DNA of 64,000 nt from Longimicrobiales bacterium. GTDB lineage: Bacteria > Gemmatimonadota > Gemmatimonadetes > Longimicrobiales > Gaopeijiaceae. Shown in pieces: positions 24,551 through 31,064 of this stretch. The notes below the pieces were generated by a model. It was given only the letters and a program-made list of their open reading frames with translations, did no database searches and was not told the DNA's origin. Within the stretch, counting starts at the first letter, position 1. Every line of letters begins with the position of its first letter. Location: assembly GCA_965219445.1 (NCBI GenBank), contig CBDCNQ010000004.1, positions 736,001-800,000 of the forward strand, read 5' to 3'. Both the position numbers and the translations under genes were made by a program.

Positions 24551-25378
24551 TGACGTACCCCCTCCTGCGGTACCACTTGCTATGTTAGACCTGAAGCCAT
24601 TGGCGGTCCCTGGAGCTGAGGCATTCTGAGGAACCAAGGTGATGGTTTCAATGCTTCCGGAGCGGGGGGTAGACCGCCGCAGGCGCTGTGGGGTCGAACG
24701 GTATTGTACACCCGCCGCCACTGCTCGACGAGTACGACGGCCTCGGGCAGTGTGTAAAAGATCTCTCCGTTCAAGAACTCGTTCCTCAGCTTGCCGTTGA
24801 AGCTCTCGTTGTAGCCGTTCTCCCACGGACTGCCCGGCGCGATGTAGAGGATCTGGACCCGCAGCCTGGCCAGCCATCTCCGCACCAGTTTCGCCGTGAA
24901 CTCTGGCCCGTTGTCCGAGCGCAGATGCTCGGGCGGACCGTGCCGAGCGAAGAGATCGGTGAGCACCTCGAGAACGTCGTGAGCTCGAGTCTTTCGACCG
25001 ACCTTGATCGCCAGACACTGCCGCGTGTACTCGTCGAGCACGGTCAGAAGCTTCAGCGCACGGCCGTCATGGGTCCTCGTGCTTACGAAGTCGTAGGACC
25101 ACACGTGATTCTTGTGCAGTGGCCTGAGCCGGATGCACGAGCCATCGTTGAGCCACAACCGACCCCGTTTCGGTTGCCGTCTGGGCACTTTCAGCCCCTC
25201 CTGCCTCCAGATACGCTCCACACGCTTGTGGTTCACCTCCCAGCCCTCGATGCGTAGCAGGTTCGTGATCTGTCGATACCCGTACCTGCCGAACCGGCTC
25301 GCCAACCGTATCACGTCCGTGCGTAGCGCCGACTCGTCGACCCGCACCTTCTTCACCCGACGCTGAGTCGAGCGCCGA
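24551..25378 (-). mobile_element. IS3-family (IS407-like) element remnant: right end plus OrfB; OrfA and left end missing
   Basis: Terminus TGACGTACCCCC at 24551 (reads ...GGGGGTACGTCA on the transposase strand); OrfB motifs [37 protein letters not shown]. Confidence 0.88.
24580..25378 (-). pseudogene. IS3-family transposase OrfB (DDE integrase core), lacking its native 5' part
   Basis: DDE motifs present; the called ORF's first residues (MRSVVRVY) come from tRNA-derived sequence. Confidence 0.85.
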
Positions 25379-25410
25379 TAGACTCGAACTACCGACCTCA
25401 CGCTTATCAG
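25379..25410 (-). repeat. 32-bp copy of the tRNA-Ile 3' half (att site copy 2)
   Basis: TAGACTCGAACTACCGACCTCACGCTTATCAG is identical to 30790-30821; begins at the anticodon loop CTGATAA. Confidence 0.92.
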
Positions 25411-25421
25411 ATATGAGTCGA

Positions 25422-25526
25422 GCGCTCGTGGGCGCTCGTGGGCGCTGGAAACAGGGGGATTTGGCCGATTCTGCGCTGGTGGGCGCTCGCCAGCGCTGGC
25501 CAGCGATGATACAGGTTTTGTTACAG
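25422..25526. repeat. Phased GCGCT repeats (10-bp period) and a TGNTACAG pair (12-bp period) next to the att copy
   Basis: GCGCT at 25422, 25432, 25442, 25473, 25483, 25493; TGATACAG 25507 and TGTTACAG 25519. Confidence 0.7.
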
Positions 25527-25692
25527 CTTTCTCAACACGCTAGGGGACGTTTCGTCCTCATCAGGTAGCCAAACCCAGCGAGTTCCTTCTGCAACAACAC
25601 CTTCTATCGATCTTGTGCCCAGCACTTCGGTTTCACCTAAGTCTGTCTTTTGTAGACGTCAAGTTGCCATATATTGACGTTCACTCGGAGTC

Positions 25693-26601
25693 CTACCCCG
25701 AGCAGTACTGAAACCGGATCAGTTGTTTGGGCTCTGAGTACCACCAGGACTGGAAGTGCGCTGAGGGGTCTGCAGGCCAATCAAGAATTCGAGCGGGCAC
25801 AACAACCGGTAAAGGGTCAACACCAAACGGGTACGGTTCGCAAATGATACGTCCTTCACTTGCCGGTTTCACCTTAATCGTCACTCGATCCTCCCAGCTC
25901 CTCCGGGGAACGTCGAGCAGGTCGAACTCGTCATCTCCAAATCCCTTGGCGGTACCTGTGCGAGGGGGAATGAGTGGTGAGCAGAGTGACAGCGACAGCC
26001 CATCTAGGAGTTGGAGCAATCGAGCATGCGGGTTCAAATGTTCCCTATCGATCCAGGCTGCGTAAGTTTGGTCCTTACGAAGCCGTGCAATAAATGCGTC
26101 CTGCATCTCTTTGATCTCGTCAACAAAACCACGAGCAATATCGAGTCCCTCCCCCATAAGGCTCGTTGACGAACCTTTCCAGAACAACGGATGAGCAAAA
26201 GCAGGGTCCGGGTCGGTTTGAATTCCATGGGCATAGAGCCAATACCCCTGAAAACTGATGAGCAGACTCGCATAGGGATGGTCTCGACTGAAGCGAGGAA
26301 TTCCGAGTCGCCACCGATTCATGGCTTCCTGCCGGTTCTTCGGCAAGTCCGTAAGATCCAACGGAAGCCCATCGACCTCTGAAAGTTCAGGAGTAGCTTC
26401 CCATTCCCACCAGCCGTTGTCGTGCTGGGCAATGGCCAACACGACCTCGGCCCGCAACTGCTCGGGATCATCTGCGCTGGCGAACTGTCCAGGACGAGCA
26501 AACTCGTCGTTTCCCCAATTGGCAGCAAGAAGCCCTGCCAGCTCAGCATGGTCTGGCTGGCTGACCAACCACATCTGTTTATCACGCAGAGTTTTCAGCA
26601 T
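25693..26601 (-). CDS. DUF3891-like protein
   Basis: LVSQPDHAELAGLLAANWGN, AIAQHDNGW, LDGLSL, PYPF; start moved to ATG 26601. Confidence 0.75.
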   Translation of the reverse strand: MLKTLRDKQMWLVSQPDHAELAGLLAANWGNDEFARPGQFASADDPEQLRAEVVLAIAQHDNGWWEWEATPELSEVDGLPLDLTDLPKNRQEAMNRWRLGIPRFSRDHPYASLLISFQGYWLYAHGIQTDPDPAFAHPLFWKGSSTSLMGEGLDIARGFVDEIKEMQDAFIARLRKDQTYAAWIDREHLNPHARLLQLLDGLSLSLCSPLIPPRTGTAKGFGDDEFDLLDVPRRSWEDRVTIKVKPASEGRIICEPYPFGVDPLPVVVPARILDWPADPSAHFQSWWYSEPKQLIRFQYCSG

Positions 26602-26641
26602 AGTATTTCCGTTGGGACAATTGTGAGCCTCTCTTGGAGAG

Positions 26642-26716
26642 GTGCTCCGCCAGTATCTGAATAGCCACACCCCGGTTGAGATTGGTATCGGTGGCACGGT
26701 AGACCTCGCCCATGCC
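26642..26716 (-). pseudogene. Short remnant of a Ser/Thr kinase N-lobe
   Basis: Translates to GMGEVYRATDTNLNRGVAIQILAEH (kinase subdomains I-II, catalytic K replaced by Q); not in the ORF track. Confidence 0.7.
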
Positions 26717-27044
26717 GCAGGGATAGGCGATTCAAAGGCCCTTGGCCGAGTTCAGCAGCCTCCTCGAGAGAGCTGAGGCACCCCAAGAACGTTGTGTTGG
26801 GAGGCCGTGTCCATGCCAAGGTGCCCTGTCACCGTTCACCCATGCAAGGATGTGACGATCGGATGCGTGGATGGGCAAGAGGTGTGGAACGGATCCGACC
26901 CCGCGTCGGGGACGGAGGGTCCGTGGTCCGTCGGGCAGGCCACGATGTGAATGGCAGAAGTGACGTTGGCCGGCCCCATCGCTTTGTAAGCACGACACCG
27001 ACCGACATCGCAGTGGCACCGCCCAATCCGGCGAATACGCCTAT

Positions 27045-27164
27045 TCAAAGATATTTGACTAAACCACCGCCAAATTTTTCTACCAGTGGCTTGGCGTGGT
27101 CAACATATTCCTGAAATTTTTGGCCATCTTTGATTGTAATATCGATCATATAAAACGCCTTCAT
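27045..27164 (-). pseudogene. N-terminal fragment of a DUF1330-like protein
   Basis: MKAFYMIDITIKDGQKFQEYVDHAKPLVEKFGG, then a premature stop. Confidence 0.55.
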
Positions 27165-27300
27165 TTTCTGTTCCTTTCTCTGTTTGATCCAACCGAAAAC
27201 TAAAATTCTAGACGCCGAATGTGTCCACAATAAACGTCTGCCCTTTTATTTGCTAAAAACAATCTCGCCGCATGGCATTGAGAAAACACGTTGAGTTGAC

Positions 27301-27360
27301 ATGGGACGACCGCTTGCATTTGACCGCAAAACAGCTATCGACGCCGCGCTAGCGGCTTGC
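27301..27360 (+). pseudogene. N-terminal fragment of a TetR-family regulator
   Basis: MGRPLAFDRKTAIDAAL resembles the TetR MGRPREFD start; divergent from the DUF1330-like fragment; similarity lost afterwards. Confidence 0.5.
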
Positions 27361-27665
27361 AATTCGCTCGACCGCATGGTTAGAAGTCGCGCTTTAGCAC
27401 CAGCGGAGACGGTTGTCCCCACTAAATCAAGGACCGACGTTGGGGGGGAGGCGCTGGTCCTCGCGCTGCGTCACTAAGCTAGAGCATGCCTAGGGTCGTA
27501 CGCCACCACATCGGCGTACAGAACCCCAGTCGCTTGCCCACCAAGTGCACCCGACGGCCCCCCTGAAAACGCCATCTTGCTACAGCCAGTGATATTGCCC
27601 TCACGCCTTTCTTGATACAGTAAAGCCCCGAAGTCCCTAAGGCCTTGCGGGGCTGCTACTTAAAA

Positions 27666-27712
27666 AATGGGCCTGGGTAGACTCGAACTACCGACCTCAC
27701 GCTTATCAGGCG
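27666..27712 (-). repeat. 47-bp copy of the tRNA-Ile 3' half (att site copy 1)
   Basis: Identical to 30778-30824 (AATGGGCCTGGG...CTTATCAGGCG). Confidence 0.95.
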
Positions 27713-27813
27713 CCTGAGTAGGGGTCGGAATCACGGCAGGATGCCGGAAAATCTAGATGGATCGCGCGATTTGCCGCTTTCGCGAGTCCTAGATGTCGTG
27801 ATCTGCCGGGTTC

Positions 27814-27837
27814 AATCGACAGGACAATCGACAGGAC
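27814..27837 (+). repeat. Tandem 12-bp repeat AATCGACAGGAC x2, candidate integrase arm-type site
   Basis: About 100 bp inside the att copy; the same doublet recurs at 30686-30708. Confidence 0.8.
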
Positions 27838-28232
27838 ACCCGACCGGAACCGTCCATGGATCGCCCGCCTAAGATCGACGAAGTCGCACCGACTGGATGC
27901 GACCTCAAATGGGCGACCCACTGAACCCCATTCATTATTCGGGGTGTTTTCCTGAGTTGGGCTGAGTCGGGTTCAGTGCCGTAAGTGTATTCTCCGTTAT
28001 CACTTACGTGGGGTTGTTCCTCCGATCAGTATTTCCCTCTTCTCCCCCGTTTGGCTGAGTTGGCACACAAAACGGAGGTCTGAATCGGCCCATTGGGACG
28101 GGGTTTCGGGGGGTCGAGCGGTCGCTAAGCACACTTTGGCCGGGGGGGGCCGTGAAGGAGGCCAGGCCCTCGACTACTCCCCATTAGGCAGATGCTTGCC
28201 GGGTCACACGCCCTAGACACATCTTGTCCGCC

Positions 28233-30470
28233 ATGTCCGACCCCATCACGCGTCTGAACGCAGCCCTCGAGGGCCACTACGCCATCGAGCGTGAGCTGGG
28301 CGAGGGCGGCATGGCCACGGTCTACCTGGCCGACGACCTCAAGCACAACCGGAAGGTGGCGCTCAAAGTTCTGAAGCCCGAGCTGGCAGCCGTTACGGGT
28401 GCCGACCGGTTCCTGGCAGAAATCCGCACCACCGCCAACCTCCAGCATCCCCACATTCTGCCGCTCTTCGACTCCGGCGAGGCCGACGGCTTCATGTACT
28501 ATGTGATGCCATACGTGGAGGGTAGGTCTCTCCGAGAAGAGCTCGACCGTGAAAAGCAGCTTTCCATCCATGACGCTCTCGCGATCGCGAATCAGGTCGC
28601 AGACGCGTTATGGTCTGCGCACAGGCAGGGGGTGGTCCACAGAGACATCAAGCCCGAGAACATTCTTCTCAGGGAAGATCACGCGGTCGTGGCCGACTTC
28701 GGGATTGCGCTGGCTCTGACCGCAGCTGGAGGTGAGCGTCTCACGGGGACCGGGCTTTCAGTCGGTACGCCGGACTACATGAGTCCCGAACAGGTGGTTG
28801 GTGATCGTGAAATCGATGGGCGGAGCGACATCTATTCGTTGTCGTGCGTCTTGTATGAAATGCTGGCCGGCGTCCCCCCCTTTGTGGCCTCGACTCCCCA
28901 GGCAGTCGTCGCGCGACACCTGACCGATCCGGCACCGCCCATTACTACCGTGCGACCGGGGGTGTCCTCGACCGTCGCGGGTGCCATCGCGAGAGCGCTC
29001 AACAAGGTCCCTGCCGACAGACATGAATCGGCCAAGGCCTTTCAGGAGGCATTGTCTGCGACGGCGGAAGAGGTTGAGGCAAGTAGAAAGTCGATTGCGG
29101 TGCTGCCGTTCGCGAACCTCAGCACCGATGCCGAGCAGGAGTACTTCTGCGACGGGATGACGGAAGAGATCATCAACGCTCTCAGCCACGTCGAGGATTT
29201 AAAGGTGATTGCCAGGACATCGGCGTTCGCGTTCAAGGGCCGCCATGAGGACGTCCGGGAAATCGGCAGAGCCCTCGACGTCAAACACCTGCTCGAGGGG
29301 AGCGTTAGGAGCGCCGGAAATCGACTCCGGATTACGGCCCAGCTCATCAAGACCGCCGATGGCAGCCACCTGTGGTCGGAGCGGTACGACCGCGACATGG
29401 ACGATATCTTCGCCGTACAGGACGAGATCGCCCTAGCCATTGTGGACATCCTGAAAGCGAGACTGGTTACGGCAGAAAGAGAGGCTCTCACCAAGCGTTA
29501 CACCGATGACTCGGAGCTCTACAATCTGTACCTCCTGGGTCGGCATCACTGGCACAGATTCACCCCGGAAGGCTTCGAGTTCAGTGAGCGCTACATGGAG
29601 CAGGCTATCGAGAAGGACCCGGATTTCGCTTTGGCGCACGTGGGAATCGCCGAAGTGGCCCACATGAAACCGTTCTTCGCGAATGCGCCACCGAAGGCCG
29701 TCATTCCCAAAGCCAAGGCCCACGTGGAAAGAGCTCTGGAGATCGACCCCAACCTGGCGGAAGCTCACGCCATTTTGGGCCGGTTCCACACCTTCTACGA
29801 CTGGGATTGGGAGAGAGCTGAGCGAGAATATCAACTCGCCTTGGCCCACAACCCCAATTCAGCGACCGCGCACAACTTCTATGCATCTCTGTTGTCCCTT
29901 ACGGGGCGGCATGACAAGGCCGTGGAGGAAGCGTCGCGAGCCCGGGAACTCGATCCGTTGGCCGTTTTCATCAACGCCATCAAAGGCGAGCGAACCTACC
30001 ATGCCGGTCGGTTTGAGGAAGCTATCGTCGACCTGAAAGAGACGATTGCCATGGACCCGGGGTACTTCTACGCCCATCTCCTTCTTGGCTGGACCTACTG
30101 GTCGGCTGAAAGCTGGGAGGAGGCGATATCGGAGTACGAGACCGCACTTTCCCTCTCAAACAGAGACCCCATGGTTGTGTTCAGCCTCGCGAACGCCTAC
30201 CGGCAAACCGATCGCGAAAGGGAAGCGGACGAGCTTCTGAACGAAGTCGAGGACGAGGCCAAACACAAATTCATACCGCCCCTATACCTGTTCTCCATGT
30301 ACAAGGTGCGGGGTGATCTTGATCGGGCGTTCGAGTGGTTCGAAAAGGCCGTCGAGGAGCGTGATTCCATGCTTCCGTTTTGTCTGACCTGGCCGGGCGA
30401 CGAGTTGAGAATCCCCGATGAGCCAAGGTTTCACCAGGCGTTGGACCGACTAAGAAGCCCCCAGACGTAG
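28233..30470 (+). CDS. Hanks-type Ser/Thr protein kinase + TolB-like domain + TPR repeats
   Basis: GEGGMATVY, VALKVL, HRDIKPEN, DFG, GTPDYMSPEQ; SIAVLPFANLS..LEGSVR; TPRs; ATG 28233. Confidence 0.93.
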   Translation: MSDPITRLNAALEGHYAIERELGEGGMATVYLADDLKHNRKVALKVLKPELAAVTGADRFLAEIRTTANLQHPHILPLFDSGEADGFMYYVMPYVEGRSLREELDREKQLSIHDALAIANQVADALWSAHRQGVVHRDIKPENILLREDHAVVADFGIALALTAAGGERLTGTGLSVGTPDYMSPEQVVGDREIDGRSDIYSLSCVLYEMLAGVPPFVASTPQAVVARHLTDPAPPITTVRPGVSSTVAGAIARALNKVPADRHESAKAFQEALSATAEEVEASRKSIAVLPFANLSTDAEQEYFCDGMTEEIINALSHVEDLKVIARTSAFAFKGRHEDVREIGRALDVKHLLEGSVRSAGNRLRITAQLIKTADGSHLWSERYDRDMDDIFAVQDEIALAIVDILKARLVTAEREALTKRYTDDSELYNLYLLGRHHWHRFTPEGFEFSERYMEQAIEKDPDFALAHVGIAEVAHMKPFFANAPPKAVIPKAKAHVERALEIDPNLAEAHAILGRFHTFYDWDWERAEREYQLALAHNPNSATAHNFYASLLSLTGRHDKAVEEASRARELDPLAVFINAIKGERTYHAGRFEEAIVDLKETIAMDPGYFYAHLLLGWTYWSAESWEEAISEYETALSLSNRDPMVVFSLANAYRQTDREREADELLNEVEDEAKHKFIPPLYLFSMYKVRGDLDRAFEWFEKAVEERDSMLPFCLTWPGDELRIPDEPRFHQALDRLRSPQT

Positions 30471-30685
30471 AGGTGGGGAACTGACCCCGCACCGACCCAC
30501 TGAAGCACCATCAGGTTCACTGATACCCCTAACATGACACGCCCTTGCTCATGCAGCATGAGGTCCTCGATGGCCGACGGACTAGAGCAGACCAGGTGGC
30601 TGAGGTTGACCAGCGTCACATCACATAACGCCTGACTCAGGCTCTCGCCTCTTGGGACGCCCGCGGGCAGCCGAACATCGCTGCG

Positions 30686-30708
30686 AATCGACAGGACAAT
30701 CGACAGGA
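30686..30708 (+). repeat. Tandem AATCGACAGGA(C) doublet, candidate arm-type site
   Basis: 23 bp identical to 27814-27836; about 70 bp from the tRNA 3' end. Confidence 0.8.
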
Positions 30709-30779
30709 AGGGCCGATCTACCGGAAGCAAGAACCCCGCCCGGCCACGTAAGACCAAGCGGGGCTTCGATTTCCATCAA

Positions 30780-30853
<74 letters not shown>

Positions 30854-31064
30854 CGCGACAACTTACAGATTCGGTGTGCGATGTTTTGTGCAAGAACGAA
30901 CCGTCTCATGCCCGCTTCTCCCTCCACTCACCACCGCTGAGAACGACAGATAAGATAGTGTCGGTGTCGGCCTGCTGGTAGGCACGTTTGAGGCTCCCAG
31001 TGTCCTTCCAGCCACCGGCGGCGGCCACGTCCCACCAGCCCACCGCCGAGATCGGTGGGACGGG

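Follow-up and report, generated by a model that had tools for sequence, protein, structure and literature searches.

Results and Discussion

Within the 64,000-nucleotide stretch of Longimicrobiales DNA analyzed here (the window), an islet of about 3 kb lies behind a tRNA-Ile gene and holds a single kinase gene between two attachment (att) ends. Our preferred reading, to which we give a probability of about 0.6, is that the islet is what remains of a tyrosine-recombinase element seated in the anticodon loop of tRNA-Ile, that it lost the integrase but kept both arms and the kinase, and that it would be mobilized only by an intact relative. The islet is bounded by a 47-bp direct repeat of the 3′ half of tRNA-Ile(GAT), which begins 3 bases ahead of the anticodon loop and forms the distal att core (27666–27712, the displaced tRNA 3′ half) and the identical tRNA-side core (30778–30824). 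The tRNA gene (30780–30853, minus strand) is the sole copy in the genome and the integration target; its anticodon loop at 30815–30821 would be the 7-bp crossover spacer, which in the distal core corresponds to 27703–27709. Inward of the cores, by 102 and 70 bp, respectively, stand two exact copies of a 23-mer in direct orientation, as the initial annotation of this DNA had reported. These arm-type doublets, both on the plus strand, occupy 27814–27836, at the inner edge of the conserved distal end, and 30686–30708 in the tRNA-side arm; a comparable match was found in 0 of 100 shuffles of the window. The distal arm, or X end, measures 124 bp (27713–27836, plus strand) and is present in five copies in this genome. 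The GC hairpin placed after the tRNA's 3′ end was also confirmed (∼30734–30764, minus strand; z −2.55, with an equally good fold in 2 of 200 shuffles). It lies between the converging tRNA and integrase sequences, contains the integrase stop codon, and is likely a terminator. An Rfam scan gave no match except the tRNA.

An Integrase Remnant and Its Full-Length Relatives

The islet had been described as lacking a recombinase. This is correct for an intact gene, but a 3′ stub of a tyrosine integrase (31 codons plus the stop, 30656–30751, plus strand) spans the right doublet, which falls within the coding tail for the integrase C-terminus. The stub is 93.5% identical to residues 340–370 of protein P0001, and its longer relatives, found in metagenomes, are full-length proteins of 363–392 amino acids. 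In 3 of the 75 metagenome loci that hold the doublet (L165, L198, and L226), a full integrase adjoins both doublet and core. At L165 the integrase end adjoins tRNA-Ile, and helix-turn-helix (HTH), HUH Rep (PF23343), and MerR-type genes are also present; the Rep matches RepSA below the cut-off, the 4.3 kb seen hold no conjugation genes, and the contig stops before the far end of the element. By its gene content, L165 appears to carry an Xis-like gene beside the integrase together with a rolling-circle Rep. The earlier description of the islet as a nonautonomous element with matched arm ends is strengthened by these comparisons, in that the parent integrase has been identified, the sequence for its C-terminus runs over the doublet, and the islet's tRNA-side end is identical to that of the autonomous L198 at 160 of 169 bases. 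Judged from sequence, the islet is an integrase-deletion derivative. Across units, integrase stubs come in seven distinct lengths of 8–455 bp, from which it follows that the integrase was deleted repeatedly.

The doublets would be arm-binding sites for the N-terminal domain of the integrase, by analogy with the lambda and IntDOT models (PMC2817482). Sister integrase clades have different doublets at the same position after the stop codon, and such clade-specific doublets at one position support the arm-site reading by covariation. We propose that the parent element integrated by crossover within the 7-nt anticodon loop, restoring the tRNA, and that repeated internal deletions then removed the int/xis/rep module, stopping at the sequences required in cis. 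Ends left by other tRNA-targeting elements, together with a kinase promoter, would have accumulated inside the islet. Excision and reintegration would take place only if an intact family member gave integrase and excisionase in trans, or integrated alongside.

Conservation and Dispersal of the Ends

Sites with at most one mismatch to the doublet number six in this genome, so the doublet is not confined to the islet. Of the exact matches in GTDB, 5/6 are in Longimicrobiales (Gemmatimonadota), and the sixth is a coding repeat without the flanks; in viral collections, neither the doublet nor a relative of the integrase was found. Borders were drawn from distal ends gathered without use of the doublet, with one duplicate row dropped and the window included. 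In this doublet-blind set the doublet is kept in 22 of 23 ends, 11 of the 23 stop within one base of the end of the doublet, and loop and stem are retained on the outer side in 33 of 39 distal ends; several ends share continuations, so these counts represent fewer independent events than copies. Column identity over 27 ends is 0.79–0.92 across core and arm and drops from 0.92 to 0.49 past the doublet. The conservation of the ends, which had been taken as a sign of recency, is family-wide and not such a sign. Occurrence of the doublet away from tRNA islands had been named as an adverse outcome; the doublet is indeed mostly found away from the tRNA gene, but within the same att arms in Gemmatimonadota.

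The distal arm contains nested inverted repeats (27719–27812) that could fold as single-stranded DNA. An RNA structure was considered and rejected: although prediction gives a long stem, two-sided change is found in only 1 of 39 pairs, and there is no Rfam match. The outer flanks of dispersed distal arms are often arms of other families or insertion sequence (IS) ends. At one locus of this genome (G000:C4:1195281-1195697, L242; G000 denotes this genome), a variant tRNA-side arm adjoins a core and a distal arm in an attP-like arrangement preceded by a tRNA-Pro fragment.

Proposed Mobilization in Trans

Several observations weigh against the remnant reading. Four of the five distal arms in this genome are far from tRNA-Ile, as they are in genomes G005–G007, and a matched pair of both ends was observed only in this islet; elsewhere the tRNA-side end is often accompanied by the distal end of another family. 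Within the arm, the doublet is conserved no better than the rest (0.92 versus 0.91). The model leaves unexplained both the dispersed distal ends and a further core-like site, P, described below. No full-length cognate integrase was found in 12 genomes of the genus, which have stubs only, or in 60 genomes of the family, where the best match is 54% identical. Finally, no excision product, empty site, or joint across the islet appears among the 15 joints listed, which come from contigs of four runs at low depth; contigs of this kind show presence, not absence.

A resident helper was sought among the 66 PF00589 (tyrosine recombinase) matches of this genome and rejected: the best integrase is 51% identical and has a different doublet. 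Because the assembly is ∼92% complete, the absence of a helper from the genome is not proven. The Rep of L165 was not found in the genus genomes, and the genomes with sister integrases do not track those with the arm. The islet may be recent or still excisable, as had been proposed, but these data give no sign of it: neither a helper integrase in the genome nor an excision joint among those listed for the four runs was found. Since no sampled genome has an intact cognate integrase, mobilization must be rare or past. No RNA run holding the islet was found among the matches listed.

A Core-Like Site Beyond the Cargo

The P site (30542–30564, plus strand) is a core-like inverted repeat whose right half equals the half-site of the tRNA core and whose 7-bp spacer (30549–30555) is not that of the tRNA. 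It occurs three times in this genome. The origin of P as a host tRNA or tmRNA fragment was considered and rejected, as there is no 11-base match, and so was its occurrence in other phyla: of 77 GTDB matches, 67 are outside Gemmatimonadota, and those 67 have no such ends close by and resemble chance matches. P may serve as a second end or as an accessory binding site; it may also be an origin or an operator. The first of these roles leads to an alternative that we think unlikely but worth setting out, in which the real mobile unit is smaller than the islet: core and distal arm, one to a few genes, and then P, either as second end, where it would be a core without an arm whose foreign spacer is tolerated in the manner of IntDOT or Tn916, or as required cis site, giving 2–5 kb packets without a tRNA-side arm that spread round the chromosome.

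In favor of such packets, 20 of the 44 distinct units for which 3 kb or more of sequence is available have P after the distal arm and none has it in the opposite orientation; its distance from the arm is 2286–5340 bp except in one empty 88-bp unit. In 120 family genomes the reversed control pattern occurs 0 times. In an unbiased count P is the top shared k-mer set, and over 32 sites its borders are sharp and the positions of its half-sites conserved. Among the 120 family genomes, 10 contain P and 9 contain the arm; 6 have both, and in 4 the two are positionally paired. In genomes G005–G008, 7 of 12 P sites are paired with an arm. The cargo genes are intact and adjoin both borders, sister integrases in this genome occupy many non-tRNA sites, and IntDOT recombines mismatched overlaps (PMC2817482). 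However, a search of 121 genomes for the predicted core–P excision scar, in which two inverted half-sites would flank either spacer, found none, and three genomes matched with unrelated spacers; the P spacer is on no distal end; and no target duplication is evident in the flanks inspected. Furthermore, 24 of the 44 units have no P within the available sequence, the arm–P units are not independent, and in the autonomous L198 a P site is found upstream of the int operon, so that P may be no more than a part of the backbone passed on by descent.

Nested Relics and Tandem Arrays

Two relics of other elements lie inside the islet. W (27914–28075, plus strand) is the nested distal end of an element that targets tRNA-Pro(GGG), consisting of a tRNA fragment (27914–27934) and an arm whose doublet is down to one copy. 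W2 (30493–30515, plus strand) is a core-like relic with half-sites of the tRNA-Pro(GGG) family and another spacer. W and W2 as a general nested pair were rejected, as the combination is limited to the islet and a single related unit. Another type of nested end is found just inside the doublet of the distal arm at L006, L210, and L217, where an apparent 5′ half of tRNA-Arg(CCT) and another doublet are followed by the kinase promoter.

The islet is the first unit of a tandem behind tRNA-Ile. Beyond it come a second integrase-less cassette with the other arm family (25411–27665), whose cargo is a DUF3891 gene (25693–26697, minus strand), and a third, truncated core (25379–25410), fused to the 3′ portion of an IS3 element (24551–25375). 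The second cassette contains a short kinase 5′-end relic (26664–26718, minus strand). Two congeners (G005 and G006) have six cores each behind tRNA-Ile, and the DUF3891 gene recurs at 93% identity and a different rank in the G005 array. A tRNA-proximal element of G005 (L065, 4828–9539) has a divergent 405-residue integrase, its own doublet, and kinase-TolB-TPR cargo. On the 5′ side of tRNA-Ile in the window is the C-terminal stub of another tyrosine integrase (30912–31031, minus strand); longer pieces of this integrase type at L080, L214, L218, and L235, together with the stub, suggest a second element family that integrates at the 5′ side of the gene. One clade of ∼19 tyrosine recombinase copies in this genome has a doublet of its own and occupies many sites outside tRNA genes; some are near-identical multi-kilobase copies, in a transposon-like pattern.

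We consider it quite improbable that the islet is an immobile relic, whose decaying ends are kept only because a kinase with promoter and terminator is useful and were scattered by IS rearrangement and other insertions. Consistent with decay, neither a helper integrase nor the Rep was found in the genus sample, copies of IS3 and IS5 have cut into cores and cargo, the doublet of the nested W is down to one copy, the half-site or arm is broken in 6 of 39 distal ends, and the abundance of kinase 5′ fragments in the genome indicates continuing loss. Against this reading stand the clustering of breakpoints just outside the functional sites on both sides (the 33/39 ends with loop and stem and the 22/23 with the doublet), the DUF3891 cassette at different array ranks in two species, and the autonomous copies, ∼95% identical at the end, that still exist.

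The Kinase and Other Cargo

The sole cargo of the islet is a Ser/Thr kinase–TolB-N-like–TPR gene (28233–30470, plus strand) that encodes 745 amino acids with Pkinase and TPR domains, all Hanks-type motifs intact, and no transmembrane segment. The report of one intact kinase-TolB-TPR gene between the doublets is therefore accurate, although the TolB N-terminal match is weak (NCBIfam, E = 1.3e-4). Upstream, a leader or promoter-like motif (28190–28232, plus strand) is common to many kinase paralogues; a sigma-70 promoter scan of 27500–28300 found none. Synteny of the kinase at this site in relatives lacking the att repeat would have spoken against a mobile element; no orthologue occurs among 11 congeners, where the best match is 43% identical and covers the sensor part. 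Two close relatives are found elsewhere. In run X4, from another study, kinase pieces are 99.5–100% alike and backbone pieces ∼90–98% among the matches listed, which is only a hint of possible transfer.

This genome has 41 kinase starts or N-termini, of which 14 belong to full-length paralogues and 27 are short or truncated, and the TolB-N/TPR module is also joined to cyclases and other heads. By its domain composition, the kinase is likely a cytoplasmic one-component signaling protein of a lineage-expanded family and ordinary accessory cargo. Synonymous identity at the 5′ ends of the kinase genes is 0.66 in codons 1–30 versus 0.40–0.52 further on; this is suggestive of gene conversion, and selection on the translation start could give the same pattern. 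At L231, the promoter and ∼20 kinase codons are fused to a beta-propeller gene.

Across related units the cargo varies. The first open reading frames (ORFs) inside 77 distal ends of the two arm families encode MacB/FtsX permeases, kinases, HTH-IrrE proteins, sulfatases, dehydrogenases, transposases, and unknowns. A PadR-like gene with a MacB/FtsX permease is the commonest cargo (L075, L175, L196, L200, L219, and L238), and only two such ORFs are present in this genome. Of the 63 distal arms in the islet's family, 8 have an inward-facing kinase start no more than 1.5 kb away, versus ∼0.7% expected from the kinase density of this genome, a count inflated by shared arm-plus-promoter ancestors. 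A general role for kinases as cassette cargo was rejected for this genome: of the 41 kinase starts, only one is within 3.5 kb of the ends of the islet's family, 5 of 41 are within 5 kb of a tyrosine recombinase versus 13% of random points, and upstream doublets are found for 9 of 41 versus 117 of 800 random ORFs.

Kinases such as Stk2 and PD-T4-6 act in abortive-infection defense, and the initial annotation had suggested a signaling (or defense-like) kinase as cargo. The diversity of cargo beside the ends and the restriction of defense-library matches to the generic kinase domain do not bear out a kinase-specific or defense-like system. That the kinase triggers abortive infection in the manner of Stk2 or PD-T4-6 is highly improbable: single-gene cargo at a tRNA hotspot, PADLOC PD-T4-6 models that match at E = 1e-92, and a TPR region that could sense a foreign protein speak for it, but all PADLOC and NCBIfam kinase matches are limited to the catalytic domain (∼residues 7–300), the best NCBIfam scores are below their cut-offs, the genome has the 14 full-length paralogues and 41 kinase starts noted above, the TolB-N/TPR module occurs on cyclases and other heads, and other cargo at these ends is mostly for transport, regulation, and metabolism. 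For PD-T4-6, MADS6, and PglW, the islet has no full-length match and no partner genes.

Relation to Known Elements

Cis-mobilizable elements (CIMEs) have lost their integration and transfer genes, keep attL and attR, and accrete in tandem at att sites (PMC5704250). The islet resembles them in keeping attL and attR (the 47-bp cores and both arms), in being stacked with decayed elements behind a tRNA 3′ end, and in having no integration or transfer genes beyond the 31-codon stub, with one kinase ORF. It differs in that the 4.3 kb seen of its parent include a rolling-circle Rep of the HUH type and lack conjugation genes, the ends of its family are mostly dispersed from the tRNA, the cargo is closed by P as a third core-like site, and no helper is resident. 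From these comparisons, the islet would work like a CIME, with membership incomplete as regards descent from an integrative and conjugative or integrative and mobilizable element and cis-mobilization.

The islands detected by Islander are marked by a tRNA gene and a displaced 3′ fragment, with crossover in the anticodon loop and a tyrosine integrase (PMC4383910). The islet has the tRNA and the displaced fragment in the same orientation, but unlike these islands has no integrase of its own. Identity between the islet's end and that of the neighboring element family ceases exactly at the edge of the anticodon loop, which fits the anticodon-centered site class of Islander (PMC4383910). Because Islander demands an integrase gene on the island, the islet and its arrays would be filtered out (PMC4383910). 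The tycheposons of Prochlorococcus are small tRNA-integrating cargo elements whose degenerate copies in tandem build islands (bioRxiv 10.1101/2020.12.28.424599). Unlike the islet, tycheposons carry an integrase and primase/helicase-type genes; the parent L165 has a replication module of a different form.

Integrases of the Tn916 type bind arm sites and tolerate spacer mismatch. The same applies to CTnDOT (PMC2817482); CTnDOT and Tn916 coupling sequences vary by site, whereas both islet spacers are fixed. Such tolerance is a precedent for P as a partner site, and the islet's integrase may or may not share it. As to integron features, the array has no integrase, its borders are tRNA-derived cores, and Rfam gives no match but the tRNA, with no dedicated attC or IntI model run. 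Mobile insertion cassettes and units of the miniature inverted-repeat transposable element (MITE) type carry passenger genes between conserved ends, which are transposase inverted repeats, and are moved by an enzyme acting in trans; the islet's ends are instead att cores and arm sites. No description of such elements in Gemmatimonadota was found in the literature searched (openly accessible papers without supplements), and the available part of PMC11316326 makes no mention of integrases.

Implications

The islet is one of dozens of stripped-down gene packets in Gemmatimonadota, and these are likely moved only if a rare intact relative provides the enzyme. Seen as a CIME-like cassette it is unremarkable, and the CIME and tandem-accretion class is itself known; island finders that demand an integrase miss it. 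What appears new is that the distal ends are mostly far from the tRNA and that a third conserved site, P, core-like but with a different 7-bp spacer, closes the cargo in many related units. The parts for following this up are in hand: the intact L198 integrase and its HTH partner, a matched nonautonomous substrate, dozens of natural deletion variants from which the minimal ends can be mapped, and the P site.

We also entertain, as a speculation that we rate unlikely, a gene shuttle of the Longimicrobiales, in which integrase-less cassettes of 2–5 kb with one att arm and a fixed P core are moved hit-and-run by a rare visiting integrase element into any tRNA-Ile fragment, including those on other elements. 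If so, cassettes would collect the ends of several integrase families as extra tickets, and an integron-like or MITE-like route made from lambda-type att parts would help feed the expansion of kinases and MacB/FtsX permeases. If P is a true second end, single-gene mobile cassettes would arise from lambda-type att sites without a canonical second arm, and this would supply a means by which accessory genes turn over in a phylum that is largely uncultured.

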